64,000 nt of DNA. Origin: Edaphocola sp. GTDB lineage: Bacteria; Bacteroidota; Bacteroidia; Chitinophagales; Chitinophagaceae. Location: contig DASSSY010000008.1 in assembly GCA_035708205.1 (NCBI GenBank), forward strand, positions 88,314 to 152,313, written 5' to 3'. The position numbers were made by a program, and so were the translations under genes. Below, piece after piece: positions 7,207 to 24,193 of the stretch (position 1 is its first letter; each line of letters opens with the position of its first letter). The notes beneath the pieces were generated by a model. It was not told the DNA's origin and ran no database searches. It was given only the letters and a program-made list of their open reading frames with translations.

Positions 7207-7222
7207 GTCGGGAAGACAGGAT
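7207..7222. repeat. Distal att core (copy of the tRNA-Pro 3' end)
   Basis: Exact 16-nt match to 23994-24009. Near-match extends about 6 nt further outward. Confidence 0.85.
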
Positions 7223-7283
7223 GAATACCCGTCATTCTAAACCATTGATAATTAATTTCTTACTACCAAACCAAAAAAAAGAG

Positions 7284-7302: not shown

Positions 7303-7592
7303 AATGAACGGCCTCATCATGTTTGCCTTTATTTTGATGGTTTCAATGAGCATTGTAACAGCAAATGTAAGAAAAAGGATTCAAATCCTTCGGTTCGTGG
7401 CCATTCTGTCTGTGCCGCCAGCAGGCTGATCCAATACCGCTTGATGGCCTATTTATAGTTCTCGTCTGCGATAATATACGCATTTCGGGTATTAACGCAG
7501 ACGAAAACTTAGCGGTGAGGCGTTCTTTTCTGTCTGTCAGGAGCATCAATCCCGATAAATGATTGATGGTTTTCAATCCTTCGGTCAATGTT

Positions 7593-7759
7593 CCATTCGG
7601 CTCACCGATAGGCAGCCAAAATGCAGCGTGGCGGCAAACCCAAATTTTGCCAAAAAATACGATCCGCCGCTTGGCGGATGGAGATTTTTTGAAGCAAACT
7701 CGTCCCAATTTGGGTTTGCCTCGGGCGGCCATACCTTCGCCGGCGGGGGAGCCGAATGG
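7593..7759. repeat. ~170-bp imperfect palindrome (nested inverted repeats)
   Basis: Pairs found: ccattcggctc 7593-7603 with gagccgaatgg 7749-7759; ggcaaacccaaatt 7633-7646 with aatttgggtttgcc 7707-7720; caaaaaat 7651-7658 with attttttg 7684-7691; central hairpin ccgcc-gctt-ggcgg 7664-7677. Confidence 0.8.
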
Positions 7760-7796
7760 TAATTTTTTGAAGTCCTTTTACCCAGCTATCTTTGTT

Positions 7797-8540
7797 TCAG
7801 GCTAACATTTTTTCTAACTTCGTTTTCCACTTCTCCCAGTCTCGCATTTCTTTAGTTTGTAAATCGAAAAACTTCTGTGTATGGTCATGATGTATTAAAT
7901 GACAGAGCTCGTGTATAATAACATACTCAATGCAGCCCTTTGGGGCTTTAATCAGTTCAGGATTAATAATGATTTTGCCTTTAGCAGTGCAACTTCCCCA
8001 ACGGGTGGGCATTTTTCGAAAAGTTATGAGATATGAATTATGAGCTATGAGTTCAATATTGTGTTTAACCACAAACTTTTCAAGTAAGGGAGAGGCTATT
8101 TGTGGCAGGCGTTCCTTCGCTTTTTGCAAGTACCAATCTTCTACCAACCTTTTTGCCTTGCTTTTATCTTTTGTATAGACATTTAAAAAACCTCCGCTCA
8201 TTCTTACACAATCATTTCTAACCCCTAATTCATCATTCATAATTCTTAAACGGTATTGTCGACCCAAATAAAGATGGGTTTCCCCACTAACATATTTTCG
8301 CTTTGGCGTTTTTGGTTGAAAGGAAAGGAAAAAACTTTGCTGTTTGAGTATCCATGGCGCTTTCTTTTTTATTTTCTCTTTTACCTTCTCAATTGACGTG
8401 TCTGCCGGTGCTTTTACCAATACTTCCATTTCTGGGGTTACGGTAATGCCAAGAGATTTCCGGTTGGAATACACCAAACGAAAGTCAATAACCTTACTGC
8501 CAAATTGAATATTACTTAGTTCTTCTTTCCCTACATTCAT
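7797..8540 (-). CDS. YgjP-like / M48-family zinc metallohydrolase (DUF45), R-M associated
   Basis: HExxH motif in IIHELCHLIHHDH. It sits immediately downstream of hsdR, as is typical for this family. Confidence 0.8.
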   Translation of the reverse strand: MNVGKEELSNIQFGSKVIDFRLVYSNRKSLGITVTPEMEVLVKAPADTSIEKVKEKIKKKAPWILKQQSFFLSFQPKTPKRKYVSGETHLYLGRQYRLRIMNDELGVRNDCVRMSGGFLNVYTKDKSKAKRLVEDWYLQKAKERLPQIASPLLEKFVVKHNIELIAHNSYLITFRKMPTRWGSCTAKGKIIINPELIKAPKGCIEYVIIHELCHLIHHDHTQKFFDLQTKEMRDWEKWKTKLEKMLA

Positions 8541-8571: not shown

Positions 8572-11500
8572 TCAAATCTTATATCTCAATTTAGCTACCT
8601 CAATGCAGCCTTCTGCAATCTTGTCCATCTCATCGAATGACAGGTCAATATTGTATTTATCCCTCACTTCATCGATCAAATAGTCTCCTATTTCAATGAA
8701 TAACCTGCCGGTAATATTTGTCTTAATCTGCCAATCAACAATCGGTTTGCCATCATCCAATACGGAATGCTGAATAAAATCATCAATGTGCAAGGCCGTC
8801 TGCGTGGATATATTTTTGCAAGTTAACTTGTCTTGTATCTTTTCAGATAGAACCTCAACAGTCAATCCATAAAATGCCTTAGCGATATCTCTTTCCTTCA
8901 ACTGCTCCGGAATATCCTTGTCGGTATGAGCAAGAACATCATTCATAATTTCCTGAACCCTCTTCAGGTATTGTGCTTCATTGATGCGCTTAGCCTCATA
9001 ATCGGCAATAGCATCTTTCAACATTTGAGAGAACTTTTTATAAAATGCAGGGTCTTCATCCATTTTCTCCCGGATGTGCTTAGCTGTTCTGCTGGCAATT
9101 TTGTCAGCCTTGGCTGCTTTCCCCGTCGTGTTTTCCACTTCCTGCTGAAATTTGTCTTTGTCGAAAATGTTCACCAATTCGGTAATCGTCTCAATCTTTT
9201 CAGTAGTAATATGAGTATCAATCAGCTTTTGAATCTGACCTTCGTACTGTTTGTAATTTATGACATCGCTGTATCTTTCCACCACGGCCAGACGTAACTT
9301 CAAGAACATAGCCAGATCTTCCTTATATCGGTCAATGACCTTTTCCTCCACTTCATTGTGAAACTGGATGGAAGATAAAGCCAGTTTTAGACTTTTGGCG
9401 AAGTCGGCCAGTTTGTCATAAAACAAGACTCTCTTAGCTTCATCTTTCAATAACTGCTGATAGGCTTCTGCATCGCGTTTGTTGGTTATGGTCTTGAATA
9501 TATCCCATAAGTCGGAATGCTTTTGCGGAAGCTTCTTTATTTCCTCAGATATATTGGTAAGGGTACCGGCTAAGTCTTCTTCATCGAAATCTTCAAATGA
9601 GGAATACAACTTCAGCGCATCATCTAAATTTTCAATTACACCGTAGTAGTCAATAATATAACCAAAATCCTTGTCCGGATAAATGCGGTTAACTCTGGCT
9701 ATGGCTTGCAGGAGCTTGTGCCCGCGTAGGTTTCTGGTCAGATAAAGCACGGTATTTTTGGGCTCATCAAAACCCGTAAGCAATTTATCTACCACAATGA
9801 TAATTTCGGGGTCTCGTTGATTCTTGAAACGGTTAATCACATTCGTTTCATATTTTTTAGCATTGCCATGCTCCTCCATCATTCGCTGCCAAAACCGGTT
9901 GACCTTTTCCGATGATTTTTCATAGGCTGTTTCTTCTCCCTCCCGCTCGTCAATGGGAGAAATGAGTACTTCACTGGTTACAATACCAATTTCATCCAAA
10001 AACTCTTTATAGCGGATAGCATTTACCTTTTTATCACAAACTAACTGGGCTTTAAATGGCGTCCCCTGCCAATTACTGCGGAAGTGCCGGCTGATATCCC
10101 AGGCTATCGCATAGATTTTTTGTTCGGCGCCATTGAGTTGGTCTGCCCTTGCAAATTTCTTTTTCAAATCGGCCTTTTGGTAATCGGTCAACGGTTCGGA
10201 AACCATACCGAAAAAGGTGTCTATGGGGTTTTCATTGACCTTTTGACTGGCGACTCTTCCTTCGTACAACAATGGAACAACCGCCCTATCTCTTACGGCC
10301 TCATCAACGGTATAAGCATCAATAATGCCGCCGAATTTTGCTGCGGTACTCTTGTCTTTTTTGAAAAGGGGGGTTCCGGTCATGGCGATAAAACATGCGT
10401 TGGGCAAGGTTTTTTGCATGTCTATATTGAATATGCCATGTTGGGTTCTGTGGCCTTCATCCACCAGTACAAAAATATCAGGGCTTTCCAATGGTTTGTT
10501 GATTTTCTTTACCGCGGCCACAAACTTGTTGATGATTGTGGTAACTACGGCATCGCTTTTGCTTTCCAATAATTCCACCAACCGTTGGCCGGTCGTGGCA
10601 TTTTCTACAAACTTGCCGCATTTTCGGAAAGTCCCGGTGAGCTGGCGGTCTAAGTCAGTGCGATCGGTTACCAATATTATTTTCGGGTTCTGAATGCCTG
10701 GGTCCATTGCAATAGCCTGTGCCAACATGACCATAGTTAGTGATTTCCCGCTTCCTTGTGTATGCCAGATTACGCCACCTTTTCTTCTGCCATTTTCAAT
10801 ATGTTCAATTCGCTGCATTGTCTTTTTAATGGAAAAAAATTGCTGGTAACGAGTTACTTTCTTTTCTCCATTGTCGAACAGGATAAAATTGAAAATGATG
10901 TCCATTAACCTCTTGGGACGACACAATCCATATAAATACCTGTCTTGTTCCGTTGGTAAAATGGTCTCTTGTTTTAATGCATCGAAATATTGACGAACAT
11001 ATTTAAAGCGGTCTGCAAACAACTGATTTTTAATTCCATCAGACAGCGGTTCGTTTTTTATATCCTGTAATCTGGCCTTATAGGTTTGTTCCTCCTCAAC
11101 GGTTTCAAATTTTTCCTTCCATTTCGACCAGAATTCTTCCGGCGTGGCATTGGTTGCATAAAGGGCATCATTACAACTGATGGAAAGCAGTAATTGGGCA
11201 TATACATACAAGCTGCGAATGCCGTCTGCCTGCTGGCTCCTTAATTGCTGGCTGATTGCCTGCGAAAGCGGTTCTTTCCTATCCGGGCGCTTACATTCGA
11301 TGATGCAAAGCGGAATACCATTGACAAATAAGACCAGATCGGGCCTATAATGCTCTTTGCTGGTGCTCCGCATGACGCTAAACTCCTCGGTAACATGAAA
11401 AACATTATTGCTGATATTCTTCCAGTCAATGTATTGAAGCGTGAAACTTTTTTTATCACCGTCCACACTTTGCTCCAATGCCTGCCCCAGGGTAAGCAGG

Positions 11501-11799
11501 TTGTATGCTTTTTCACAGGCGGCAATGTAGCCTTCATTCATGGGCAGGTTTTTGAGCGCTTGTATGCCCCGCTCAATATTTTCATCTGTGAAAATGCTCG
11601 TCCGGGTAGCACTTACCCGAATACTGTTGATTTCCTTCAATTGCCTTCTCAGGATATCTTCCAGCAATACATTAGATGTTTTGCCACCTCTTTGCCGCTC
11701 AGCTTCTGCCGGACTAAGGTAACTGTAACCCAATTTCAGCAGCATTTGCAGCGCCGGAATCTGGCTGATATGATCTTCTTTGAAACTTGGTATATTCAT
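8572..11799 (-). CDS. hsdR: Type I restriction endonuclease subunit R
   Basis: 1075 aa. N-terminal nuclease-type region (MNIPSFKEDHISQIPALQML... CIIECKRP) and SF2 helicase motifs TQGSGKS and VLVDEGHR. Confidence 0.95.
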   Translation of the reverse strand: MNIPSFKEDHISQIPALQMLLKLGYSYLSPAEAERQRGGKTSNVLLEDILRRQLKEINSIRVSATRTSIFTDENIERGIQALKNLPMNEGYIAACEKAYNLLTLGQALEQSVDGDKKSFTLQYIDWKNISNNVFHVTEEFSVMRSTSKEHYRPDLVLFVNGIPLCIIECKRPDRKEPLSQAISQQLRSQQADGIRSLYVYAQLLLSISCNDALYATNATPEEFWSKWKEKFETVEEEQTYKARLQDIKNEPLSDGIKNQLFADRFKYVRQYFDALKQETILPTEQDRYLYGLCRPKRLMDIIFNFILFDNGEKKVTRYQQFFSIKKTMQRIEHIENGRRKGGVIWHTQGSGKSLTMVMLAQAIAMDPGIQNPKIILVTDRTDLDRQLTGTFRKCGKFVENATTGQRLVELLESKSDAVVTTIINKFVAAVKKINKPLESPDIFVLVDEGHRTQHGIFNIDMQKTLPNACFIAMTGTPLFKKDKSTAAKFGGIIDAYTVDEAVRDRAVVPLLYEGRVASQKVNENPIDTFFGMVSEPLTDYQKADLKKKFARADQLNGAEQKIYAIAWDISRHFRSNWQGTPFKAQLVCDKKVNAIRYKEFLDEIGIVTSEVLISPIDEREGEETAYEKSSEKVNRFWQRMMEEHGNAKKYETNVINRFKNQRDPEIIIVVDKLLTGFDEPKNTVLYLTRNLRGHKLLQAIARVNRIYPDKDFGYIIDYYGVIENLDDALKLYSSFEDFDEEDLAGTLTNISEEIKKLPQKHSDLWDIFKTITNKRDAEAYQQLLKDEAKRVLFYDKLADFAKSLKLALSSIQFHNEVEEKVIDRYKEDLAMFLKLRLAVVERYSDVINYKQYEGQIQKLIDTHITTEKIETITELVNIFDKDKFQQEVENTTGKAAKADKIASRTAKHIREKMDEDPAFYKKFSQMLKDAIADYEAKRINEAQYLKRVQEIMNDVLAHTDKDIPEQLKERDIAKAFYGLTVEVLSEKIQDKLTCKNISTQTALHIDDFIQHSVLDDGKPIVDWQIKTNITGRLFIEIGDYLIDEVRDKYNIDLSFDEMDKIAEGCIEVAKLRYKI

Positions 11800-11938: not shown

Positions 11939-13600
11939 TCACTTTTTAAGAGACCATTTGGGTTTACTATAAGTACCTGTATTTTCAATTCTTTCTTTCA
12001 TCCTTAATTCTGATAGTAGGTTCCCAATCTTGTTTTTCTTCTGCTTATCATCCATCCAGTCTGGTAGCTTCTTCCACAACAATTCGTCTATGTCACTCCT
12101 TTCCAGTATCTTATGTTCTCTGATTGCTTTTTCAATTAAATCCAGATAATAGCTCTTATCAAAAGCCTTGTTTTTAGAATAAGCGGCCTTTTGACCTGTT
12201 TTTGCGGCTACTTTTATTCCTATGTAATAGTTTGGCTTCCTCCCCTCAATCAGGTTTTTGTTCCGTAAGTGCTTCTCTTCAAAAGCCGATAAAGTTTGCT
12301 TCTTCTGAACTTTGTCCAGCATCATAATTTCTTCCAAAGTCAGGTCTTTATTCTGAGCAAGTAATCGGGCATAATTCATGTCCAGGATTTTTCCCGAAAT
12401 GGACACTTTTACTCTATCGTTAGACAAGTCGTAATCAGGTAAAGGAAAAAATCGCGCTCGCTGAAAATTAAATATTTTCTTAATGCCCCCGCCGGCAGTA
12501 TCTACCATTTTAAGATTAAACATAGCGGTTGCCAGGAAACGGTTTCGGTAATATTCTTCGGGTGCATCTTCTATAACCACCTTTTCTACGTTTCCGGGAA
12601 TAAAGGAACCCTGATTGGTGAATACCAGTTGATCGGGCATCTCTATGACGTTTATTCTCGCGTTTTTTGTATAATCCTGATGAGCAATACAGTTATTGAT
12701 GGCTTCACGGATGGAGAACGGCTCATACTTTGATACTTCTGTAGGAAAAATAGTTCCTTCCTGCATATAGCGATACTTGATATTCCGAACCTTTGCATAT
12801 ACCTTTTCTACGGAAAGAATGAAAGGCAACCCAAAAATCTCATAATCTATATCATTGTTCTTTTCATCAACCAACTTCCAACGAATTTTGATATCAGCAG
12901 GACTCAGAAAATGCTCGGATTCATCTTTTCCTAAAAGGATGAGTGCCGTTCGGGTAATTTTTCCTTTGATGGTTACTTTTGATTTATTGAGAAAAGCAAT
13001 ATCATCCCAGGCATCCACTTCTTGCGCTTTATCTGGAAATTTATTTTTAAAGTTTTTTCTGGCCAGCGCAATGGCATCTTCGTCCAAATCTTCCACTGAA
13101 GCACCGGAGACAATGGCCGCACTCCAGTCTTCTTTAATTGCCTGAGCACGAATACGTTCAATTTTTTCAAGATTCAGCGGGGCTAATTCTTCTCCGTCAC
13201 GGGCGTAATAATGCCCATCAAATGCAATTGGAATCCCCCGCGGAGCCGCCGGAATCTGAAACATAATAACACGGCCATCGGTGGTATTGAGCTCGTGAAT
13301 CTCAATAAAAGAAATCCGATTGGTAGTTTTATTGGCAATCTCACCTTTTAAGCTGTCAAGATCCTTTCGTAAAGTTCTAAAATTACTTCCAATAATAGAA
13401 TGATCTTTATCTCTTATACCAAAAACCAGCCAGCTATAAGGCTTGCCTTTTAAATTGGCCTCATTACTTAAGGCAGAAAAGTATTTCCCCAGTTTGGTAA
13501 AGTCATAACCTTTTTTAGCTTCCTTAAATTCAACAATTTCATTCTCGGCCGTGAGATCGAGGAGGCTTTGAAGGATATGTCTTAATTCTGTCATAGGCAT
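11939..13600 (-). CDS. AlbA_2 (Schlafen-like) DNA-binding domain plus HATPase_c_4-type ATPase plus C-terminal wHTH protein ('RecG-like' transcriptional regulator family)
   Basis: The N-terminus ENEIVEFKEAKKGYDFTKLGKYFSALSNEANLKGKPYSWLVFGI is typical of AlbA_2. The central region has NNCIAHQDY and MVDTAGGGIKKIF. Confidence 0.7.
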   Translation of the reverse strand: MPMTELRHILQSLLDLTAENEIVEFKEAKKGYDFTKLGKYFSALSNEANLKGKPYSWLVFGIRDKDHSIIGSNFRTLRKDLDSLKGEIANKTTNRISFIEIHELNTTDGRVIMFQIPAAPRGIPIAFDGHYYARDGEELAPLNLEKIERIRAQAIKEDWSAAIVSGASVEDLDEDAIALARKNFKNKFPDKAQEVDAWDDIAFLNKSKVTIKGKITRTALILLGKDESEHFLSPADIKIRWKLVDEKNNDIDYEIFGLPFILSVEKVYAKVRNIKYRYMQEGTIFPTEVSKYEPFSIREAINNCIAHQDYTKNARINVIEMPDQLVFTNQGSFIPGNVEKVVIEDAPEEYYRNRFLATAMFNLKMVDTAGGGIKKIFNFQRARFFPLPDYDLSNDRVKVSISGKILDMNYARLLAQNKDLTLEEIMMLDKVQKKQTLSAFEEKHLRNKNLIEGRKPNYYIGIKVAAKTGQKAAYSKNKAFDKSYYLDLIEKAIREHKILERSDIDELLWKKLPDWMDDKQKKNKIGNLLSELRMKERIENTGTYSKPKWSLKK

Positions 13601-13610
13601 ACGTAAAATC

Positions 13611-14384
13611 TTATGAGTTTATCAATTCAGCAATTTCATTGGCTATTTCTTCAACGGTAAAATTTGCCGTATTACGGGCAAGCTTATCAGCTATTGAAGG
13701 GGAAAAATCAACTACTTCCTGTTTTGTTATATTGTGCCAAATTGGGAGTAATACTTGTTCCCCACTTACAACCTTTGTAATGATTCCATCCAATTCGTAA
13801 TTTGTCCAACCTTTCTTAATAAAATTCCTTGATAATACAACTATTCCAAATTTACTTTTGGCAAGTCCTTTGTCTATCTTCTGCCTTAAACTGTCACCAA
13901 TTTTCAATTCAAACTCGTCATACCAAACGGATAGCCCTGCGTTTCTAAGTGCGATAGCTAATGGCCGAACTATTTCATCCTTATCTTCGGAGGCATGGGA
14001 AATAAATACATCATGCTCTCTGTAAGCCCCATTATCAAACCCAAATGGAGATTGCGCTCCACCCTGAACCAATGAAGGCACCGACGATAATGGAGCATCT
14101 TGATAAACTGGTAAAGCGGAAGGTAATATCTGTACATTAGCATTTGTGGAGCCTCTCAATCCTTGCATATCAACCGTTACATAGTAGTGCCCCGAACTTG
14201 GAACCCCTAATATAACTGGTGATTTTGTTACTAATCCGCCTACATAACGATGACTCCTTCCCGATTTATAATTATTGTAATTGGAGTTATCCATTAAACG
14301 AACATTCGCAGCATTTCCAGTTAATGTTACCTTAACTCGTTCACCTCTTTTAAGCTGTTTTAAGTCCCAAACTAAATATTCCAT
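13611..14384 (-). CDS. DUF1883-TIR domain protein
   Basis: N-terminal ~95 aa (LKRGERVKVTLTGNAANVRLMDNSNYNNYKSGRSHRYVGG) is DUF1883-like. C-terminal TIR has HDVFISHASEDKD and a candidate catalytic Glu in WTNYELDG. Confidence 0.75.
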   Translation of the reverse strand: MEYLVWDLKQLKRGERVKVTLTGNAANVRLMDNSNYNNYKSGRSHRYVGGLVTKSPVILGVPSSGHYYVTVDMQGLRGSTNANVQILPSALPVYQDAPLSSVPSLVQGGAQSPFGFDNGAYREHDVFISHASEDKDEIVRPLAIALRNAGLSVWYDEFELKIGDSLRQKIDKGLAKSKFGIVVLSRNFIKKGWTNYELDGIITKVVSGEQVLLPIWHNITKQEVVDFSPSIADKLARNTANFTVEEIANEIAELINS

Positions 14385-14406: not shown

Positions 14407-15273
14407 TCAACTTACAGGAAATTTATCTCCAAACAACTGCTTCCAGATATTCAGGGCATTTTTATTACTATTAGTTTGAATTGCTAACTCCGCATCTTTA
14501 AGCATTTGCCGGAACGTTTCTTTGAATTTAGTTCGTTGATCAAAATCCAATTTTAATAAATTATCTTGTGGTGTTGCCGGATTAATAACCTCAGTATCTC
14601 CGTTCCAAAACCCTCCAAAAGTTGATTCAATGGCTTTGGCTGTTTCAAAAAATGCTTTATCATCTCGGCTGTTTGGTTTGTAATTATTAGTAACCCAAAT
14701 CGTGAAAGAGATTCCATTTGGCATTTTTCTGCTCCGCTGATATGCCCATGCTTTAAAGTATTTCACCAGCCGTATTAGCTGCCCATTTTTATCTTTTCTC
14801 TTCTCAAACCAATCACACAGTTCTTTTGGATCACTTTGTAGCCAACCTTTCTTCGTAGCTAAAAAGGGATGTTTGTCATGGGGTGTTTTATAATACACAG
14901 GTAAGTCAATATCATAATCGCCTTGGTAAATGACTCGGATACATTTCTCTCTGTGCTCAACACCTCCTACAGTACAGCCATTTACAGCATTGTGAACATT
15001 TTTTTGTAAACTTAATGATTCAATTTTGGGTTTCTCCAGAAAATAAATTCCTAAGTCAACATCATAAGTGCCATTCTTTTTTACTACCATAGTTCCCATT
15101 TTGTAAGAACCCTGTATATAAAATCTTGGTGTAAGGAATTTTGCATGTGATTTAAAATGTTCACGAATACGATTCTCTAATGCTTTTCGTGAAGCAATCA
15201 GCTTTTTCTTTTTGGCAGGACTAAGCGAAATAGCCCGTTCAAATTGCAAAAATTGCTTATAAGTGTTTCCCAT
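14407..15273 (-). CDS. CD-NTase-like (cGAS/DncV-like) nucleotidyltransferase, short form (288 aa)
   Basis: Pol-beta NTase triad layout: IQGSYKMGT, YDVDLGIYF and DYDIDLPVYY, followed by WLQSDPKELCDWF and LIRLVKYFKAW. Confidence 0.75.
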   Translation of the reverse strand: MGNTYKQFLQFERAISLSPAKKKKLIASRKALENRIREHFKSHAKFLTPRFYIQGSYKMGTMVVKKNGTYDVDLGIYFLEKPKIESLSLQKNVHNAVNGCTVGGVEHREKCIRVIYQGDYDIDLPVYYKTPHDKHPFLATKKGWLQSDPKELCDWFEKRKDKNGQLIRLVKYFKAWAYQRSRKMPNGISFTIWVTNNYKPNSRDDKAFFETAKAIESTFGGFWNGDTEVINPATPQDNLLKLDFDQRTKFKETFRQMLKDAELAIQTNSNKNALNIWKQLFGDKFPVS

Positions 15274-15284: not shown

Positions 15285-16349
15285 TTACTTAGCATCAAAG
15301 AATTTACTGCCACTCCCAAAATTCTTAATAATATCGGTAGCATTTTTTTGAAATTCTATATTGGCTTTCTCAGCGAGTTTTTTAAGTTTTCCTTTATTTG
15401 TTTCGTCCATTTCAATAGGGCAACTTTCATCTAATTGTGTATCAATTCTTATGTAGTGAAAGTTATCCGGCTCTTGTTTGTCAATACCATTTTTTAAGAT
15501 GCTAATTAAGTTTTGCGCTTGTTGAGTTTGACCTTGCATAAAAACTTCAATCAGCCGTTTCTTTCCATCTCCAAGCATCCAGTAATAAATGCCATATTTC
15601 ACGCGATGTTTTTTCTTCTTGTCTATTCCGGCGTCACAAAAGCGTTGATGTCCCGTTCCGACGGATAAAACAGATAAGTCTTTTAGCTCAAGGTTGAAAG
15701 CTTTTTTTGCTTCGATAATTCCATTTAACGTTGGGTTATTTGCAAATACACCTCCGTCCACTTTATTTTGGAAAGGTTTTTCTAATCCATTCAAATCAAT
15801 GTAAGAAGCTGAATATGGGTCAAAATAAGTGGGGGCAGCTGAAGTCGCCAATGCGGCTTGGTATGCCGGAATATGAAAGTCTCTGACAAAGGCTGGATGA
15901 TATTTACTCTTTAGAACCGAAGGCCTTCCTTCCATTAAATCATAAATGGGAATGGCTACATGTGTTTTACAATGTTTTAATCTTGGGTCTTCTCCATCTT
16001 CTCCATTGTGATAAGCCTTGTATTTGTCCCGGATTAACTTTTCTAAAGCATCACGATTGTAAGCAGCATATTTAAATCGTTTCAGAAAGCCCTTTTTATT
16101 ACCAAAAATAGTCTCAGCATTATTCAAATAGAGTTCGTAAATCTCTTTTGCAGGAATACCCAAGGCCAAAGCAATTGCCATAATTCCGCCTGTGGAAGTA
16201 CCACAGATTAAATCGAAGTTCTGATAAACCTGCCATTTCTCAATGCCTTTGGCTTTGAGTTCTGCTTCATAGTTGGCTAAAAACATTGCTGGGAAAATGC
16301 CTCTGATTCCGCCACCATCTATGGATAATATTTTGAAGGGTTCTGCCAT
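15285..16349 (-). CDS. Patatin-like phospholipase (CapV-like)
   Basis: Oxyanion-hole motif DGGGIRG, nucleophile elbow GTSTG, and catalytic Asp in VDGGVFANNP. 354 aa. Confidence 0.85.
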   Translation of the reverse strand: MAEPFKILSIDGGGIRGIFPAMFLANYEAELKAKGIEKWQVYQNFDLICGTSTGGIMAIALALGIPAKEIYELYLNNAETIFGNKKGFLKRFKYAAYNRDALEKLIRDKYKAYHNGEDGEDPRLKHCKTHVAIPIYDLMEGRPSVLKSKYHPAFVRDFHIPAYQAALATSAAPTYFDPYSASYIDLNGLEKPFQNKVDGGVFANNPTLNGIIEAKKAFNLELKDLSVLSVGTGHQRFCDAGIDKKKKHRVKYGIYYWMLGDGKKRLIEVFMQGQTQQAQNLISILKNGIDKQEPDNFHYIRIDTQLDESCPIEMDETNKGKLKKLAEKANIEFQKNATDIIKNFGSGSKFFDAK

Positions 16350-16350
16350 A

Positions 16351-17607
16351 TTATTTGATTCTGATTTTACCAGTTAATAATTGCTGCATCAATCCTTTCT
16401 TCTGCATCCTTAGTTTCTCCGCTTTGACCTTGAGCAGGTTAATTTCTTTATCTGCTGCTCGCAAGATTTGGACAATCGCTGTTTGCTCCTTAATTGTCGG
16501 GATAAAAAACTTCATTGAACAAAGCCCATCAAAAGATAAGCTATCTCGTACACTACCTTGAACGAACATCGGGATATGGCCGTAAAACCATTGTGTTTTT
16601 AAGTGGAAGTAAAGAAAATCCGCCAGCAGACGTTTTTCGTCCGTTGCAAATATAATATACATCGGGCTTAAAATCCCAGCTTCCAAATTTCTTAGCAAAT
16701 CGAGCGAGCCAACATTAACCCTGGATGGATTGTAGGCAAATTGACCTTTCTTGACTATCTTATAATTTGAAGTATTCTCACTTGCAACGGTTCTATCAAA
16801 TTGGTCCGTTTGGTTAATAAATCCTCTAGAATTGGTTACAGATAAAATGTTTAAAACCTTTGCCTCTTTATTTCTTTCTGAAATTTCCCTTATAAACTGG
16901 CCAACGGCTTTTAGCTTAACTTCCCCACTAAACCCGTTCGACCGTATTTTCCCACTTAACAATTGCTGCATTAGCCATTTTTTGCGAAGTTCTTTTTGGG
17001 CTATGAGTTTATCGGTGGCCGCAATGACAGCATCGCATGATTTTAATATTCTTGCAATTGATTGTTGTTCAGGAATAGTTGGGAGTGGAATTTTAACTTG
17101 AGAAAGGTCTCCTTGTCCAATATTTGTTCTAACCGCACCTTGACCATTTCGTATAATTTGATTCCTTACAATACTTGAACGAAGACAATATCTTTTATAA
17201 AAATCATCTATTGATTTGTTCAATGGTCGCCCTCTTATCACAAAGCCTCCAAATACAACTTCATCTGTTCCATTATAAACGGCAGATAAACCAATTTCTT
17301 CAACCGTTTCCGATGTCCTGTTGAAAAGCACATCTCCATCTTTTACTAAGTATAGTTCTTTCTGCTCATCGGATATTTGGACTGTTCCGGGAATCAAGTC
17401 AGGTGTGATATAGTCATTATAAATAACTTCCATAACGTTAATAAACTTAACACCACTCCCATAACTTTCTTTTCCAGCATTGATACCGTTTTTAAAATCA
17501 AACAGTTTACCTAATTTAATTACATCCCACTCACTTGGAATTACGGCATCAAGGGAAGGCCTTTTTAAATTGCTGTTTTTATTTTTTACTTCTGGTTGCT
17601 TCATCAT
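16351..17607 (-). CDS. hsdS: Type I R-M specificity subunit, full length with two TRDs
   Basis: Two TRD halves, each ending in the conserved PLPTIPEQQSIARIL / IPTIKEQTAIVQIL motif plus a coiled-coil ending LMQQLL(S/T)GKIR. Confidence 0.9.
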   Translation of the reverse strand: MMKQPEVKNKNSNLKRPSLDAVIPSEWDVIKLGKLFDFKNGINAGKESYGSGVKFINVMEVIYNDYITPDLIPGTVQISDEQKELYLVKDGDVLFNRTSETVEEIGLSAVYNGTDEVVFGGFVIRGRPLNKSIDDFYKRYCLRSSIVRNQIIRNGQGAVRTNIGQGDLSQVKIPLPTIPEQQSIARILKSCDAVIAATDKLIAQKELRKKWLMQQLLSGKIRSNGFSGEVKLKAVGQFIREISERNKEAKVLNILSVTNSRGFINQTDQFDRTVASENTSNYKIVKKGQFAYNPSRVNVGSLDLLRNLEAGILSPMYIIFATDEKRLLADFLYFHLKTQWFYGHIPMFVQGSVRDSLSFDGLCSMKFFIPTIKEQTAIVQILRAADKEINLLKVKAEKLRMQKKGLMQQLLTGKIRIK

Positions 17608-18064
17608 TAGTTTCTTTTAGTTTGTTAGCTTGCTTTTCCGCTTCGGTTTCGTTATGAATACCGCCACCACGCCAAGTGCCGGTACATAGCCAAAGTTCAT
17701 AATGACACAGCCATTCGCAGGCCCAAGGAATTAATGTTCGAATATAAAGCATCCCAACATTCCACTCCACACGATTAGGATAATACAAGCACAATCGCTG
17801 GTCAGGTGTCGAATAGACGTGCGGTAAAGTCTTCTTCCCTTCAGCAAGAGCTAATGGTTTCGGTTCTATTACATATACCCTAATGCCGTTATTTCTAATG
17901 TATGTCAATTTTAATTTGTAAGTATTGCTTAGCGGTGATGGTGTAACTGAACCTGTCCAAGTGAGAGATTCTTCGCGGAAGCGTCTTATTGTACAATCAG
18001 GAAATATCTTTTTTAATGTTCCTTCCTGCACAATCAGTGATATCCTATTGTTCTTCTTTACCAT
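17579..18064 (-). CDS. Stand-alone UBC/E2-like protein (candidate catalytic Cys92)
   Basis: YKLKLTYIRNNGIRVYVIEPKPL...LPHVYSTPDQRLCLYYPNRVEW...TLIPWACEWL mirrors the E2 core pattern (beta-meander, His 10 residues before Cys-Leu, downstream Trp and helix). It overlaps the NTase gene by 20 nt and hsdS by 29 nt. The call is by eye only. Confidence 0.55.
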   Translation of the reverse strand: MVKKNNRISLIVQEGTLKKIFPDCTIRRFREESLTWTGSVTPSPLSNTYKLKLTYIRNNGIRVYVIEPKPLALAEGKKTLPHVYSTPDQRLCLYYPNRVEWNVGMLYIRTLIPWACEWLCHYELWLCTGTWRGGGIHNETEAEKQANKLKETNDEATRSKK

Positions 18065-19280
18065 AGAAGTTATGATTTTTCAAAGTTGTGCCAACGCTAC
18101 CTAACATTCCGGAAGATGCCGCCATTTTCAGTTCTCCGTTTTCCCGAAGCAATCTGGTTTTTTCGCTATAATTAGAGAATGCTTTTGCAACCACATTTTC
18201 TCCAAATGGTTTTGATAATGCTTCCTTAATAAAATGCAAGCCTCGTTGTCTTATGGCGTACTGTAGATCAAGTTTAACCTGCTTAATCCACTTATAGAAA
18301 TTTTCTTGCTTTTGCGGGTTCTCCGGCCATTTATCAGCAAAGTTCTCGGTATCATTTACCGGATTACCAATCCATTTGATATTTTTTCTATATTTCTCTG
18401 AATATCGTTCTTCTATGAAAGCTGACATTCTTTCAACTACCTTCAACAAGGCTTCTATAATATCAGTTTCCTTATGATAGGCTCTGGCAGCAAGCGTGGT
18501 AATAATGATGGAAATAGGTTTATCTTCATCCCCGTTGAACATCATATCTCTATGTCGTTTCAAAATTTGAACGACACGTTGTAGAGGTAATTTTCTTGTC
18601 TGGTATTTAGGAACCGGCTGTACCGCTTCGCTCATCAGGCGGAGTTCACTTGTAAGCAATTTTGCTCTGTTTTCGAACCAGATACCATAGCCGAAGGGGT
18701 TACTCTTAGGCCACCATTCCGGTTGGGTTTCCATCCTATAATTTATTTCGAGTTTATCAGTGATGCGAATGGCAAGTGTTTCAAAATCTACGGTGGAAGC
18801 TGAAAGACTTTTTTCTAACAGAACCCGGTATCCACTACTTACAATAGCGGGTAAAATGTCCAGATGGAATTTGGCTGAATCTGCATACTGTAATGTCCAA
18901 CATCTTCTTCCGTCTGGTATTTTTAGCAGACGTTTTAAAGTTCCATGGTTAACCAGTCGCTGACCAACTATTTGTTTCAGATTATATTGCGTCCATTCAG
19001 GCCTTTTACCTTCAAGCCTACAAACTAAGTCAATATCAAGTTCATCATCATCATGTATAGGTTTAATCATTGTGCCCAGCATAAATGAACCTTGTGGCAA
19101 TATTTCCGGGTTATACGGAGAAAGATTCGATTCTGGAGCGGAAAGCCATTCCCCCACAAACTCATAACTTTTAACCGCTGCGTCATGCTGTTCTTTGGTT
19201 ATATCAAGCGACTTTCCTAATTCTTCCAGTATATCACTAAATTGTTTTTTTTGTTCTGCTGTAAGCATATTAAATAGCAT
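18045..19280 (-). CDS. SMODS / CD-NTase-like nucleotidyltransferase (411 aa)
   Basis: QGSFMLGT, ELDIDLVC and FHLDILPAI form the catalytic triad layout. Downstream are WPKSNPFGYGIWF and LQRVVQILKRHRD helices. The start overlaps the hsdM stop by 11 nt. Confidence 0.75.
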   Translation of the reverse strand: MLFNMLTAEQKKQFSDILEELGKSLDITKEQHDAAVKSYEFVGEWLSAPESNLSPYNPEILPQGSFMLGTMIKPIHDDDELDIDLVCRLEGKRPEWTQYNLKQIVGQRLVNHGTLKRLLKIPDGRRCWTLQYADSAKFHLDILPAIVSSGYRVLLEKSLSASTVDFETLAIRITDKLEINYRMETQPEWWPKSNPFGYGIWFENRAKLLTSELRLMSEAVQPVPKYQTRKLPLQRVVQILKRHRDMMFNGDEDKPISIIITTLAARAYHKETDIIEALLKVVERMSAFIEERYSEKYRKNIKWIGNPVNDTENFADKWPENPQKQENFYKWIKQVKLDLQYAIRQRGLHFIKEALSKPFGENVVAKAFSNYSEKTRLLRENGELKMAASSGMLGSVGTTLKNHNFYGKEEQ

Positions 19281-20829
19281 TTAATTGTTTAAGGTATTTA
19301 TCCATTTCCGCTTGTACGGTTTTCAATTCGTCTTCTAATTGCTCTATCTCATTTTGCACCGCAGCAATATCCACTTCTGGTTCTTCTTCAAAAGTATCCA
19401 CATAGCGGGGTATATTCAGGTTAAAGTCGTTTTCCTCTATTTCTTCAAAAGTGGCTATATAACTATATTTATCTTCGACCACACCCGGTTGTAGTTTGCC
19501 GGCGGTAAAACCCCGGTAAGTATTTACAATATGGTCAATATCCTCTGGGCGCAGCTTATTTTGATTTTTGGCGCTTTCATAGTGCTTGCTGGCATCAATG
19601 AACAATACATTATTGCTGCTTTTCACCTTATTAAAGATGAGAATGGCCGCCGGAATACCGGTACCAAAAAACAGGTTGGCCGGTAAGCTAATAACGGCTT
19701 CCAACAGATTTTCTTCAATGGTTTTTTTACGAATCTTCCCTTCGCTGGCTCCACGAAATAACACACCATGAGGTACGACCACGCCCGCTTTTCCGTTCTC
19801 ATTCAACGTTTCTATCATGTGGGTAATGAATGCCCAGTCGCCTTTGCTCTTGGGCGGCACACCCCGCCAAAAGCGGTTGTACTTATCCGTTTCCGGGTCA
19901 TAGCTAACGGTAGTTTTTTCGCCGTCTTTATCTTCCACCTTTCCCCATTTGTCCAAAGAAAAGGGCGGATTGGCTACAACGGTGTCAAATTTCATCAAAG
20001 CATCGCCTTCTTTAAGCTTGGGGTTACGAATAGTATCGCCCCAGCGAATGGTGGCGTTGTCAAAGCCATGCAGGAACATATTCATCACCGCCAGCGCCCA
20101 GGTGCTGCCATTGGCTTCCTGTCCATAGAGCGAAAAATTATCGGAACCTACTTCTTCACCTGCTTTTATCAGCAATGAAGCAGAGCCGCAGGTAGGGTCG
20201 GCAATGCGAGACCCCGGCTTTGATTTAGTAAGTTTGGCAATGAGCGTAGATACTTCCCTCGGGGTGAAAAACTCCCCCGCCTTTTTCCCGGCATCGCTGG
20301 CAAAGTTTTCAATCAGGAACATGTACGCACCACCAATAATATCCACGCCATCTAAATGAGAGGGCCTTAAATCAAGATCTTCTTTATTAAAATCCAGCAA
20401 CAGGTTCTTCAATCGGATATTTTTATCCTTCGTTTCCCCCAACTTGCTGCTGTTAAAGTCGATATTCTGGAATATACCGGCGCCATCTTCACTGTATAAT
20501 TTTTCGCGATTGGCTTCTTCCAAATCCGCCAAGGCAATATTAATCAGTTCGCCGATATTGGCCTCATTACGATGGTCATATAAGTATCTAAAGTGACTTT
20601 GTTCAGGCACAATAAAGCGTTCGTGCTGCATGGCACGCTTGGCGCGTTCTGTATCCCCATTGTATTTTTTCAAGTAAGCTTCATACTTATCGTCATACAC
20701 ATCGCTGAGGTATTTGATGAACATCATGGTCAGCACATAATCTTTGTAAACACTTGGATCAATGCTTCCACGAAACGTATCGCAGGCTTTCCAGACGGCA
20801 TCATTGATTTTTTTTTGGGTTATCTTCAT
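19270..20829 (-). CDS. hsdM: Type I R-M DNA methyltransferase subunit M (N6-adenine)
   Basis: HsdM N-terminal domain, SAM motif DPTCGSASLL, and catalytic VVANPPFS. Confidence 0.95.
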   Translation of the reverse strand: MKITQKKINDAVWKACDTFRGSIDPSVYKDYVLTMMFIKYLSDVYDDKYEAYLKKYNGDTERAKRAMQHERFIVPEQSHFRYLYDHRNEANIGELINIALADLEEANREKLYSEDGAGIFQNIDFNSSKLGETKDKNIRLKNLLLDFNKEDLDLRPSHLDGVDIIGGAYMFLIENFASDAGKKAGEFFTPREVSTLIAKLTKSKPGSRIADPTCGSASLLIKAGEEVGSDNFSLYGQEANGSTWALAVMNMFLHGFDNATIRWGDTIRNPKLKEGDALMKFDTVVANPPFSLDKWGKVEDKDGEKTTVSYDPETDKYNRFWRGVPPKSKGDWAFITHMIETLNENGKAGVVVPHGVLFRGASEGKIRKKTIEENLLEAVISLPANLFFGTGIPAAILIFNKVKSSNNVLFIDASKHYESAKNQNKLRPEDIDHIVNTYRGFTAGKLQPGVVEDKYSYIATFEEIEENDFNLNIPRYVDTFEEEPEVDIAAVQNEIEQLEDELKTVQAEMDKYLKQLNAI

Positions 20830-20848: not shown

Positions 20849-21211
20849 TTAAGATTTGAGATTTTTTTGTTTGATCGTTAAGATAGTACTTCGAAGCATT
20901 TTCAAAATTTGAGTAGCCTCGTCAGATAGCTTTTCGAATGCACCCTTGTTAATATATTCGGTAAAATAAAGTAATTCCAACCAGTAAAGAGCCTCATCGC
21001 ATTCTTTTTGAGCGATACCAAGTTTATGCACAAAATCATTTTTGCTTTCAGCGTTTTTTGCTTCACGAATATTCGCACCGACCGAAGTACCTGAACGAAG
21101 TAGTTGTTTGCTCATTACAAATTCTTTCTTTTCTTCAGCCAGTGTTTTATACGCCTTCACCACTGAAATAGCAAAAGCAAAGGATTTTTCTTTTAGTATT
21201 GATTGGCTCAT
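20849..21211 (-). CDS. Four-helix-bundle protein (23S rRNA-intervening-sequence protein family)
   Basis: 120 aa with KSFAFAISVVKAYK...QLLRSGTSVGANIREA...SKNDFVHKLGIAQKECDEALYWLELL, typical of TIGR02436-type proteins. Confidence 0.75.
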   Translation of the reverse strand: MSQSILKEKSFAFAISVVKAYKTLAEEKKEFVMSKQLLRSGTSVGANIREAKNAESKNDFVHKLGIAQKECDEALYWLELLYFTEYINKGAFEKLSDEATQILKMLRSTILTIKQKNLKS

Positions 21212-21214: not shown

Positions 21215-21781
21215 TTATCTCTCATAGTTTATAGCTTGAATAATTTGTTGTTGAATTTGTTGCTCCCGAAGTGAATCAATTTTCTGCTTCAGTACTCTTT
21301 CCCTATTCCGGAGTTTGGTAATTCGGAGGATTTTATTTTGTATTTCAATGTTGGGAATGGTAATCTCCAAGCCTTCTAAAACCGTTTTTGAGATAGAAGC
21401 CATCGAAGTTCCGATTGCCTGCTCTTTTAAAATTGTCCGAACAGCATGGTTATTAAGAAACCAAACCAAATATTCCGGCAGCACATTTTCGTCTTTAATC
21501 TTGATGACAAAAAAAGAGGTTGAAGCCACGGCGGGACGGTTATGACTTTCATAAATTGCCGCAAAATTCTTCGTGCCTTTAGCAGCAAAGAGCACATCGC
21601 CCGGCTTTAAAAGATGCCTTTCGGGAATGTCATCTGCAAATAAATCAGGAAAAAGCGTGGTTTGCAACTGACCATAATCGTCAAAATGCTTGACTTGTAG
21701 GTATAGTACATCACCTCTTCCCATTGGTTTTCCAAACAGCCCGGTTCGAATTTTAGCAATATCTTTGATGAGTTTTTCCAA
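21215..21781 (-). CDS. hsdS: Half-size type I specificity subunit (single TRD)
   Basis: 188 aa with one TRD, an ITIPNIEIQNKI motif and a coiled-coil tail. It is the first gene of the operon. Confidence 0.7.
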   Translation of the reverse strand: MEKLIKDIAKIRTGLFGKPMGRGDVLYLQVKHFDDYGQLQTTLFPDLFADDIPERHLLKPGDVLFAAKGTKNFAAIYESHNRPAVASTSFFVIKIKDENVLPEYLVWFLNNHAVRTILKEQAIGTSMASISKTVLEGLEITIPNIEIQNKILRITKLRNRERVLKQKIDSLREQQIQQQIIQAINYER

Positions 21782-22465: not shown

Positions 22466-23719
22466 TCAAAGATGTAATTTTTTCTTCCTCTGATTCAATC
22501 TTCTTTCAACACTCGACATATCCGCGCCGATTTTTTCCTCATCTACTTCCGCATAAATTTGCGTTGTCGTTATTTTCGTATGTCCAAGCATCTTGGAAAC
22601 CGTTTCGATGGGAACACCGTTTTTCAGGGTTACCGCAGTGGCAAAAGTATGCCGGGCAAGATGGAAGTTCATCTCCTTGGTAATGCCGCAAACGGCACCG
22701 ATAATTTTTAAATTCCGGTTGACTTCCTGATTGGATATTGGTGGGAAAATGGTTCCGTTTTGTAATGCCCGCGGGTCATTTTTGTATTTATCCATGATAA
22801 CAATCGCAGCATTTAGAACAGGAACAGCAGACAATTCTTCCGACTTTTTCCGGTAAGTATCTATCCATAATTTTCCATCGTTGGCGACCAAAAGGTCATC
22901 TTTGGTGAGCTTGGCAACATCCGCATAGGCAAGGCCGGTGTAACAGGAAAATAAAAATAAATCTTGTACCAAAATCAATTTCGGATTACTGAATTGCTTT
23001 TCTTCTATGCTGATTAACTCCGGAATTTGTAATTTTTTTCTTTTGACTTTCTTTTTTTTAATCTGGTAATTTTCAAACGGATTATCTTTTATCCAGCCCA
23101 ATTTCTTCGACCATTTGACCATTTTCTTTAATCGTTCCAGATGTTTGGCAACGCCGTTACCTTTACAAACATCCCATTTTTTGATGGGGTAATGCCGTAT
23201 ATAATGCTCCAGCTCGGTAATAAATTGGTAATCCAGCTCGGAAAGAAAAATATCTTCCCGTTTAAAATTAACCTTCAGAAAACGCCGAATGTATTCCTCG
23301 GTGGTGACATAATTTTTCATTGTTCCGGGCGCCAATATATCGCGGTTAATGTCAAGATGGTATTTAAGCAATTGAAGAAGCGTAGGCGCAGATCGGTCTT
23401 GACCTAAAAATTTTTCTTTCAAAATTTCGGCGGATACCGGTTTTTGATGCAATACCATGTCATCATAAAAGTGATGAATCTTTAGTTTAACTTTTTCAAG
23501 GTAGAGATTAAGCTGTTTGATTTCCGGTGTTGCACCTTTAATTTTATCATCTTTCGCCAGCCAGATATTTACGGGAATTCTTCGTTTCAAGGAAATGTCG
23601 GCATTCTTTCTGTTGACGGAAATGAGCAGATAAAGGGGGGCCGTTCCTTCTTTGGTTTTGTACTTCTTTACAAAAAATGATACACCGAGTGTTGGCGTTT
23701 GTTGAGTCATGACATCCAA
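22466..23719 (-). CDS. Tyrosine site-specific integrase (Bacteroidota arm-binding type)
   Basis: N-terminal arm-DNA-binding-like segment (GVSFFVKKYKTKEGTAPLYLLISVNRK), HLARHTFAT, and LGHTKITTTQIYAEV with the catalytic Tyr. Confidence 0.9.
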   Translation of the reverse strand: MDVMTQQTPTLGVSFFVKKYKTKEGTAPLYLLISVNRKNADISLKRRIPVNIWLAKDDKIKGATPEIKQLNLYLEKVKLKIHHFYDDMVLHQKPVSAEILKEKFLGQDRSAPTLLQLLKYHLDINRDILAPGTMKNYVTTEEYIRRFLKVNFKREDIFLSELDYQFITELEHYIRHYPIKKWDVCKGNGVAKHLERLKKMVKWSKKLGWIKDNPFENYQIKKKKVKRKKLQIPELISIEEKQFSNPKLILVQDLFLFSCYTGLAYADVAKLTKDDLLVANDGKLWIDTYRKKSEELSAVPVLNAAIVIMDKYKNDPRALQNGTIFPPISNQEVNRNLKIIGAVCGITKEMNFHLARHTFATAVTLKNGVPIETVSKMLGHTKITTTQIYAEVDEEKIGADMSSVERRLNQRKKKLHL

Positions 23720-23993: not shown

Positions 23994-24009
23994 GTCGGGA
24001 AGACAGGAT
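23994..24009. repeat. tRNA-proximal att core
   Basis: Overlaps the last 15 nt of tRNA-Pro plus 1 nt beyond. Confidence 0.85.
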
Positions 24010-24068
24010 TCGAACCTGCGACCCCCTGGTCCCAAACCAGGTGCGCTACCGGCCTGCGCTACTTCCCG
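23995..24068 (-). tRNA. tRNA-Pro (anticodon TGG)
   Basis: Hand-folded cloverleaf: acceptor CGGGAAG/CTTCCCG, anticodon stem CCTGG/CCAGG with loop TTTGGGA, and T-loop TTCGAAT. 74 nt, CCA not encoded. Confidence 0.9.
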
Positions 24069-24106
24069 AAACCATTTTTGCCATCAACCTGCCGGTGTTG
24101 ACGGAG

Positions 24107-24193
24107 CGGTGAGGGCGGGATTCGAACCCGCGGTACAGTTTCCCGTACGGCAGTTTAGCAAACTACTGATTTCAGCCACTCATCCACCTCACC
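24107..24193 (-). tRNA. tRNA-Ser (anticodon GCT)
   Basis: Acceptor GGTGAGG/CCTCACC, anticodon loop TTGCTAA, long variable arm, and T-loop GGGTTCGAATCCC. 87 nt. Confidence 0.9.

Follow-up and report, generated by a model that had tools for sequence, protein, structure and literature searches.

A stand-alone-E2 CBASS probably interleaved with a type I restriction-modification operon on a tRNA-Pro island of Edaphocola

Antiphage signaling systems based on cyclic oligonucleotides (CBASS) whose only conjugation enzyme is an E2 form a described class of 616 operons, and clade G accounts for 74% of their cyclases (Yan et al. 2024; Xiao et al. 2026, PMC12948482). In the Serratia marcescens representative, the E2 cuts the cyclase behind Gly406, a conserved C-terminal residue, and keeps it as a thioester on C101, H87 also being essential; the thioester is converted into an isopeptide, poly-cGAS is built, and the synthesis of 3′,2′-cGAMP is thereby activated. 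The E2 residues C101 and H87 and the cyclase residue Gly406 are all required for T4 defense (Yan et al. 2024; Xiao et al. 2026, PMC12948482). The presence of defense genes in type I restriction-modification (R-M) operons is also established, examples being PrrC, TgvAB of V. cholerae VPI-2 (PMC11411939) and the cases of Payne et al. 2024 (10.1101/2024.01.29.577857). Here, we describe a locus in which both themes appear together. In a stretch of 64,000 nucleotides (contig DASSSY010000008.1; the window hereafter) from a metagenome-assembled genome of Edaphocola sp. (Chitinophagaceae), the genes for a cyclase (CdnG) and an E2 lie between hsdM and hsdS. We give a probability of about 0.75 to the following reading: an E2-CBASS (type II "short") is interleaved with a type I R-M operon on a tRNA-Pro island, and the CBASS genes fill both slots across hsdS.

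The genes are located on the minus strand in the order half-hsdS, IVP, hsdM, (cdnG, E2), hsdS, (capV-like patatin, cdnB), TIR, a 553-aa HATPase_c_4 gene, hsdR, and ygjP. Those at the center of the analysis are as follows.

19270..20829, minus strand: HsdM, type I R-M methyltransferase, 519 aa (Pfam N6_Mtase, 7.7e-101, and HsdM_N)
18045..19280, minus strand: CdnG, assigned to the clade-G CD-NTases, 411 aa (Pfam DncV-like_NTFase and SMODS; PADLOC; PDB matches)
17579..18064, minus strand: CBASS E2, UBC-like and stand-alone, 161 aa, with Cys92, His82, and GGG133-135 plus His137 in a C-terminal loop (PADLOC; PF26395 on homologues; 8HSB_B; AlphaFold2 model with Foldseek)
16351..17607, minus strand: HsdS, type I R-M specificity subunit, 418 aa, with two target recognition domains (Pfam Methylase_S twice; PADLOC Specificity_I, 1.7e-85, full length)
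15285..16349, minus strand: CapV-like patatin phospholipase, 354 aa, presumed effector of CdnG-E2 and of CdnB (Pfam Patatin, 3.1e-25; PADLOC; NCBIfam)
14407..15273, minus strand: CdnB, short CD-NTase assigned to clade B, 288 aa (Pfam; PADLOC Cyclase, 6.5e-99; 7LJO; NCBIfam)

[quoted passage not shown] The coordinates bear out the tight packing: hsdM overlaps the start of cdnG by 11 nt, cdnG and the E2 gene overlap by 20 nt, and the E2 gene and hsdS (atg atg aag caa...) by 29 nt, all three overlaps being readable directly in the sequence. The 3′-end of cdnG is ...aac ttc tat ggt aaa gaa gaa caa tag, which encodes NFYGKEEQ followed by the stop; the ATG of the E2 gene sits within the tat-ggt codons, and the KEEQ tail of CdnG is encoded exactly by the overlap. 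With the PADLOC matches, the homologues and the invariant residues given below, the observation is far beyond chance, and as a whole it was confirmed except for the statement that no effector is present.

The CD-NTase layout of the 411-aa protein was verified. The motifs QGSFMLGT, ELDIDLV and FHLDILP are found at residues 63–70, 80–86 and 138–144, respectively, which places GS at 64–65 and the catalytic aspartates at D82, D84 and D141, and PADLOC recognizes a cyclase (PDLC00780, E = 8.9e-134). The C-terminus reads NHNFYG407, followed by KEEQ. Among the PDB sequences, the matches at E ≤ 0.01 were limited to VcCdnG (9WOO, 1.8e-60), SmCdnG (8HSB_A, 1.6e-34) and 7LJN, which we take to be the Bradyrhizobium CdnG; because these are its closest solved relatives, the enzyme is assigned to the clade-G type. 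D82/D84 and D141 line up with the corresponding motifs of SmCdnG and VcCdnG. In 48 homologues, Q63, G64, S65 and G407 are invariant, and G407 occurs within an H-x-x-[FYH]-G motif that is followed by a tail of 1–6 residues. This glycine is the equivalent of SmcGAS G406.

The 161-aa protein was likewise verified as a UBC-like E2, with His82, Cys92 and Trp101 at the expected sites. PADLOC finds an E2 over its full length (PDLC00863, E = 1.4e-51), and the sequence matches SmE2 (8HSB_B) at 5.5e-18 with an identity of about 32%. An AlphaFold2 model (mean pLDDT score 84.3) retrieved 8hsb_B and 8yjy_B with Foldseek (E = 4.9e-8, TM-score 0.65), followed by weak UEV/UFC1/UBC matches. H82, C92, W101 and G133–G135 are invariant in 25 diverse homologues, the GGGxH137 loop is conserved, and C92 and H82 align to the essential C101 and H87 of SmE2, so that the Cys/His pair named in the preliminary description is a conserved catalytic one. 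The E2 has 256 homologues, and PF26395 ("E2-CBASS") was found on all 120 of the 120 listed. It is very improbable that this protein is a structural or adaptor subunit rather than an active E2, or that the pair has no role in defense. Such a reading could appeal to the lack of a Pfam match in our local copy and to the fact that the functions of E2 and CdnG are here read from sequence alone. However, that Pfam-A copy apparently lacks PF26395, and its silence is not counted against the E2; moreover, the full-length PADLOC match, the family assignment of every listed homologue, the invariance of the Cys, His and GGG residues, and the homology to SmE2, for which experiments established both activity and a part in T4 defense, all speak against it. 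As a minor point, NCBI annotates the window E2 as a "hypothetical protein" (HET8574330.1), and annotation with Pfam only would leave it so.

The absence of E1 and JAB from the island also held: Pfam found neither a ThiF/E1 nor a JAB domain in the 16 minus-strand island ORFs, a scan that did not extend to the 7223–7796 stretch or to plus-strand ORFs. The locus thus combines a CD-NTase with GS and an Asp triad, a C-terminal Gly, a stand-alone E2 with Cys/His, and an effector gene in the operon, as in E2-CBASS; the Cap2/Cap3 composition of type II CBASS is not seen, the E2 being 161 aa alone and no E1-E2 fusion or JAB occurring in the scanned ORFs. With the Serratia marcescens system (SmCdnG-SmE2; PDB 8HSB, 8YJY, 9KKB), homology extends over both sequence and fold: the two are alike in the clade-G-type cyclase, its extended C-terminus and conserved C-terminal Gly, the stand-alone Cys/His E2 with its GGGxH loop, and the lack of E1 and JAB. 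Since the window pair carries the equivalents of the Serratia E2 and CdnG residues, it is, as judged from the sequences, a member of the known E2-CBASS family and not a new enzyme pair. The pair itself is therefore not new, E2-only CBASS having been described and characterized mechanistically before (Yan et al. 2024; Xiao et al. 2026, PMC12948482). Its components come from a system that is known and was recently characterized, so that it adds little of its own. The differences from the Serratia system lie around the pair: the Serratia effector is a 2TM-SAVED protein, whereas the window has a patatin phospholipase; the window has no exonuclease gene and has a second cyclase, CdnB; its E2 shares only about 32% identity with SmE2; and hsdS breaks up its operon, which lies within a type I R-M operon.

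The claim that no effector is adjacent has to be corrected: a CBASS patatin phospholipase gene (15285–16349) begins 1 nt past the hsdS stop. The protein matches the PADLOC "Effector Phospholipase" of CBASS at 2.5e-96 and the NCBIfam "CBASS cGAMP-activated phospholipase" (CBASS_lipase) with 254.6 bits (cut-off 200), and NCBI gives it the same name. Its orthologues, at 54–66% identity, are found directly behind E2 in loci away from R-M genes. The cdnB gene begins 11 nt past the patatin gene. Its product is intact at G55/S56, D71/D73 and D123, the catalytic residues being invariant in 22 homologues, and exceeds the NCBIfam cut-off for cGAS ("CBASS cGAMP synthase"; 183.6 bits, cut-off 150). Its best PDB match is BfCdnB (7LJO, 2.8e-52), the next ones being at 1e-9 or weaker, and by this best solved relative the 288-aa enzyme is classified as a clade-B-type CD-NTase. 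The V. cholerae CapV-DncV-Cap2-Cap3 system shares with the window the cGAMP-activated patatin effector and a cyclase regulated by a ubiquitin-like conjugation enzyme. It differs in having an E1-E2 fusion and a JAB protein, a clade-A cyclase, the effector gene upstream, and one cyclase.

The gene arrangement around the E2 was compared by scanning one genome per species, which provided 52 loci, almost all from Bacteroidota (loci are designated L plus a number below). The adjacency of NTase, E2 and hsdS, for which the preliminary description had proposed a survey, is recurrent: the layout half-hsdS, hsdM, cdnG, E2, hsdS was found in 23 of the 52 loci, with an additional Fic-like gene ahead of cdnG in 2. 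The reading frames overlap or abut, and the placement recurs in 5 metagenome loci and in L135; a full-length hsdS was mapped to this position behind E2 in the 23 genome loci and in 4 metagenome loci. L020, from Lacibacter cauensis, shares the layout of the window. Two features were found on the far side of hsdS. One is that in all 22 loci with sequence beyond hsdS, a CBASS effector gene lies no more than two genes from it: a patatin in 12, a Cap5-like HNH-SAVED protein (PADLOC, 2e-151) in 9, and both in 1. Another is that the nine Cap5-only loci have no cyclase beside Cap5 and no effector beside CdnG-E2. Since each half is an orphan in these nine loci, the system must span hsdS.

The remaining 29 loci lie outside the hsdM-...-hsdS layout, and those with readable flanks carry the same effector types beside the pair. 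Three layouts recur there: cap5-cdnG-E2; cdnG-E2-patatin, to which cdnB may be added; and cdnG-E2 with a SAVED-peptidase behind it. Contiguous cdnG-E2-patatin(-cdnB) is seen in L019, L022, L026, L027, L032, L037, L039, L041, L051 and L098, and contiguous cap5-cdnG-E2 in L023, L028, L029, L031, L033 and L049. In five loci (L037, L039, L041, L042 and L051), the patatin behind the E2 is not accompanied by CdnB; therefore, the patatin alone appears able to serve CdnG-E2. These comparisons relate the window to the CdnG-Cap5 systems of Asticcacaulis, V. cholerae and E. coli TW10828 (Cap5-CdnG-Cap2-Cap3 in the last). VcCdnG (9WOO) is the solved cyclase closest to the window CdnG, EcCdnG shares its D82/D84 numbering, and a Cap5-type HNH-SAVED protein serves as the effector in close relatives of the window system. 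The window differs in having a patatin in place of Cap5 and an E2-only regulator, as against none or Cap2/Cap3. A separate case is L050, a Tenacibaculum sp. chromosome, in which two CdnG-like and two E2-like genes occur within about 8 kb, among minus-strand ORFs of about 406–415 aa.

A second, independent sample was anchored on hsdM and consisted of 80 metagenome loci (L053–L132) whose hsdM is 82–91% identical to that of the window. The scaffold in these loci is half-hsdS, hsdM, slot 1, hsdS, slot 2, hsdR, ygjP, and both slots are hypervariable, holding dozens of cassettes, many without a family match. Slot 1 is empty in 9 loci, contains CdnG-E2 in 5, and elsewhere contains many other cassettes (at least 12 unrelated cargos). 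Patatin-cdnB comes first in slot 2 in 3 of the 3 loci that have CdnG-E2 in slot 1 and a visible slot 2, as against 1 of 43 others (Fisher p = 2.6e-4). In L098, the entire cdnG-E2-patatin-cdnB cassette lies contiguously in slot 2, after hsdS.

These two samples bear on the view that the window holds two separate systems, in which capV-cdnB would be a type I CBASS and cdnG-E2 an effector-less remnant, or a pair signaling elsewhere, brought together by the accumulation of cargo at a hotspot. Patatin-CdnB indeed occurs without CdnG or E2 in L138 and L139, CdnB enzymes are reported as typical of type I CBASS, and both slots are hypervariable; in addition, CdnB and the patatin exceed the cut-offs of their NCBIfam CBASS families, while CdnG falls below its cut-off in the same scan. 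Nevertheless, the effector follows hsdS in all 22 R-M-embedded CdnG-E2 loci, being a Cap5 without its own cyclase in nine, and the association of the two slots is significant in the independent sample. CdnG-E2-patatin trios without CdnB also exist. Furthermore, CdnG and E2 show full conservation of their residues for catalysis and conjugation, as a remnant would not be expected to do. We therefore regard two separate systems as unlikely. The suggestion in the preliminary description that an effector-less E2-CBASS borrows a neighboring effector was correct in placing an effector nearby; the effector-less and borrowed parts did not stand, since comparative genomics points to an effector of its own, encoded across hsdS.

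The other early suggestion was that the NTase-E2 module is tied to the R-M complex. In such a scheme, for example, the E2 might attach CdnG to a subunit of the Hsd enzyme, or restriction that has stalled or failed might serve as the trigger, and selection would keep hsdS inside the CBASS operon. The recurrent hsdM/hsdS placement described above speaks for this scheme, the conjugation targets of CBASS E2 and Cap2 other than the cyclase are poorly defined, and the intermixing of R-M and non-R-M members in the neighbor-joining (NJ) tree of CdnG could reflect repeated capture at one site. However, in the same R-M lineage (hsdM 82–91%), slot 1 holds unrelated cargos or none, the same pairs and effectors occur away from R-M genes in the loci outside the layout, L098 has the complete cassette after hsdS, and neither CdnG nor E2 forms an R-M-specific clade. 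Taken as a whole, the functional coupling, including the selection for hsdS within the operon, is quite improbable. Because the same slots are filled by many unrelated cargos or by none, the R-M operon is read as a carrier: the comparison argues for a two-slot R-M lineage in which CdnG and E2 would be neither subunits nor regulators of the R-M enzyme.

This arrangement resembles the known R-M-embedded cases, PrrC, TgvAB and those of Payne et al., in that independent, co-oriented defense cargo lies between hsd genes. It differs in that the window divides one multi-gene system over two slots with hsdS between them. CBASS is not mentioned in this role in PMC11411939 or in Payne et al. 2024 (0 occurrences of "CBASS"), and a literature search, which did not take in Millman et al. 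2020, gave no account of an hsdS-divided CBASS or of a two-cyclase CBASS operon. Accordingly, the split-operon topology and the recurrent design of two cyclases and one effector look new, and it is in these, rather than in the pair, that the interest of the locus lies; the interleaved CBASS/R-M layout recurs in dozens of related bacteria. Since CBASS is reproducibly split by hsdS, operon-based annotation may misassign its parts: such detection can call a divided CBASS "effector-less", or report an orphan cyclase-E2 pair plus a type I CBASS. A conserved Bacteroidota R-M lineage with two slots and diverse cargo is also a good source for discovery through "guilt by embedding".

In the interleaved E2-CBASS that we favor, CdnG would make a cGAMP-type signal, probably 3′,2′-cGAMP as judged from the Serratia, Vibrio and E. 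coli homologues. The E2 would dock on the C-terminal region of CdnG, and Cys92/His82 would cleave after Gly407, removing KEEQ; CdnG would then be retained as a thioester or isopeptide adduct, and upon infection poly-CdnG would be built, turning synthesis on. The nucleotide would activate the patatin phospholipase encoded just past hsdS, so that the membrane is destroyed and the infection aborted. CdnB, which is short and has no E2-docking tail, would most likely provide a second input to the same phospholipase. The type I R-M enzyme would act independently as the first line of defense, its operon being a scaffold with cargo slots at hsdM/hsdS and hsdS/hsdR, both occupied by CBASS. For the window pair, adduct formation, poly-conjugation and anti-phage activity are presumed by analogy, as these were shown for the Serratia homologue only (Yan et al. 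2024; Xiao et al. 2026, PMC12948482).

Several points weigh against this reading. The first is that we infer co-transcription of the operon as one unit from its packing and its few terminators. The junctions from half-hsdS to ygjP are all overlaps or gaps of at most 31 nt, except for 139 nt before hsdR, and the terminator-like sites inside the operon are weak only, none being strong. The sigma-70 promoter scan (53 sites against 44.8 expected) is uninformative, and because its model does not cover Bacteroidota promoters, packing and the lack of terminators are the sole basis here. The second concerns the ligand: the V. cholerae patatin effector CapV responds to 3′,3′-cGAMP, and the characterized CdnGs make 3′,2′-cGAMP; a match between the CdnG product and the window patatin is thus only assumed, by analogy. 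The third is that the window patatin could belong primarily to CdnB, since patatin-CdnB is found alone as a type I CBASS in L138 and L139. The fourth is that the region is mosaic across the related islands. R-M and non-R-M members, as well as patatin and Cap5 members, are intermixed in the NJ tree of CdnG even among close CdnGs, although this tree has no support values. The identities between related islands are 80–91% for hsdM and hsdR, 53–66% for CdnG, 46–83% for E2, 54–92% for the patatin, and mostly about 30% for hsdS (up to 82% in a few), and their combinations are mutually discordant. The last is that the gene maps were made with a simple ORF caller and BLAST labels, so that small or divergent genes are perhaps mislabeled.

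Recombination between islands is the simplest reading of the mosaic identities, as far as the sequences suggest. The idea of one clean ancestral insertion followed by vertical descent was dropped because of the intermixing in the CdnG tree, and the region was treated as a mosaic. The idea that the effector type tracks the CdnG phylogeny was also rejected, since patatin and Cap5 loci are intermixed in the same tree.

The role of the second cyclase can be considered from the loci anchored on CdnB, in which five arrangements were distinguished. In the first, CdnG-E2, hsdS and patatin-CdnB follow one another (L135). In the second, a fusion of the CdnG core with AGS_C, without E2, precedes patatin-CdnB, either freely (L133, L134) or split by hsdS (ERZ1426823). 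In the third, a patatin is followed by a CdnB paralogue whose tail reads ...HKNFGG, and then by E2 and CdnB (L136, L137). The fourth is patatin-CdnB alone (L138), and in the fifth, two unannotated genes precede patatin-CdnB and neither CdnG nor E2 was recognized (L139). The window patatin subfamily (54–88% identity) is common to the CdnG-E2, CdnG-AGS_C and CdnB-only (L138) contexts. Compared with the type I CBASS CapV-CdnB, the window holds the same pair, which looks complete by itself and stands alone in L138 and L139; it differs in that the window and most of its relatives add a second, regulated cyclase in the form of CdnG-E2, CdnG-AGS_C, or a CdnB paralogue accompanied by an E2. We infer from these gene contents a recurrent design in which a regulated cyclase and a short, unregulated CdnB feed one phospholipase. 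As the two-cyclase, one-effector CBASS recurs in three architectures or more, multi-input sensing through a single effector of abortive infection is suggested. The more specific idea, that CdnG-E2 and CdnB form an OR gate of two differently regulated cyclases on a single phospholipase, is tentative, its odds falling just short of even.

Some variants of these genes are described here. The CdnG-AGS_C proteins (L133:4409-5953, L134:45-1589 and ERZ1426823) are 514 aa long; their core is 58% identical to residues 5–370 of the window CdnG, and an AGS_C sensor domain replaces the E2-docking tail. In L136:4541-7864 (Cryomorpha ignava), L137:4534-7957 and L127:7194-9641, the gene order is patatin, a clade-B-like cyclase of 336–338 aa, and E2, and these cyclases end in ...HKNFGG or ...HKNYGG. 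A second CdnB follows the E2 in L136 and L137, giving two clade-B cyclases per operon. The CdnB homologues P0195, P0201 and P0215 are longer (312–318 aa) and have an N-terminal hydrophobic, probably transmembrane segment that has no counterpart in the window CdnB. The C-terminal FG-x-K-F-P motif of CdnB was considered as the mark of a second E2 substrate and then dropped: it occurs equally in the CdnBs of E2-less loci and thus allows no inference on the E2 substrate. Directly after CdnB, a GGDEF protein of 253–269 aa with an N-terminal membrane segment is encoded in L020 (13631-14392), L001, L003, L006, L007, L009, L016 and L136, at the position occupied by DUF1883-TIR in the window. This protein may add a third nucleotide cyclase to the CBASS. 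Slot 2 of ERZ1426823 contains patatin-CdnB, DUF4917 and a Pycsar-like pair (Guanylate_cyc and PycTM), so that at least three nucleotide-signaling modules are found in one R-M operon.

The other genes and sites of the island are as follows.

23994..24068, minus strand: tRNA-Pro (ARAGORN); its 3′ 16 bp (23994-24009) are repeated at 7207-7222
22466..23719, minus strand: island-borne tyrosine integrase (Pfam Phage_integrase, Phage_int_SAM_5 and Arm-DNA-bind_5)
21215..21781, minus strand: half-size HsdS with one target recognition domain, 188 aa (Pfam Methylase_S)
20849..21211, minus strand: 23S rRNA-IVP-type four-helix-bundle protein, optional small cargo found in only some related loci (Pfam PF05635, 5.2e-28)
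13611..14384, minus strand: DUF1883-TIR protein, regarded as a separate single-gene defense cargo (Pfam DUF1883 and TIR_2; PADLOC PDC-S66 and ThsB-like)
11939..13600, minus strand: HATPase_c_4 protein, 553 aa, cargo just upstream of hsdR that recurs in many scaffold loci (Pfam HATPase_c_4; no match to an AlbA domain)
8572..11799, minus strand: HsdR, type I restriction subunit, 1075 aa (Pfam HSDR_N, SWI2_SNF2, T1R_D3-like and T1RH-like_C)
7797..8540, minus strand: YgjP-like metallopeptidase, the conserved last scaffold gene, after hsdR in related loci (Pfam YgjP-like, 4.2e-49)
7207..7222, no strand: distal att-like 16-bp repeat GTCGGGAAGACAGGAT (exact 16-mer match; about 1e-3 expected by chance, as estimated from the sequence lengths)

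The island is thus a low-GC integrative element of about 16.8 kb at the tRNA-Pro site, bounded by an exact 16-bp direct repeat and carrying the whole R-M/CBASS operon. It adjoins dnaA (24284-25759), and a tRNA-Ser is located at 24106-24193. The type I R-M system is complete, HsdM, HsdS and HsdR all being full length according to Pfam and PADLOC. An orthologue of the half-size HsdS (185–188 aa) is found upstream of hsdM in nearly all scaffold loci; because it is kept alongside the full-length hsdS, this implies that a single R-M enzyme has a choice between two specificity subunits.

The DUF1883-TIR protein was considered as a CBASS effector and rejected. Its orthologues (72–73% identity) stand alone after hsdS in L096, L111, L125 and L128, which have no CBASS; therefore, it is cargo separate from CBASS. 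Finally, a three-gene cassette recurs among the scaffold loci: it encodes a calcineurin-like metallophosphatase of about 250 aa (weak PADLOC PDC-S10 match) and two proteins of about 330 and 260 aa that match neither Pfam nor PADLOC. It is found at L002:7064-9690 and L043:10032-12621 and in slot 1 of L087, L091, L102, L103, L111, L114, L125, L127 and L129, and it is a candidate for an uncharacterized embedded defense system.

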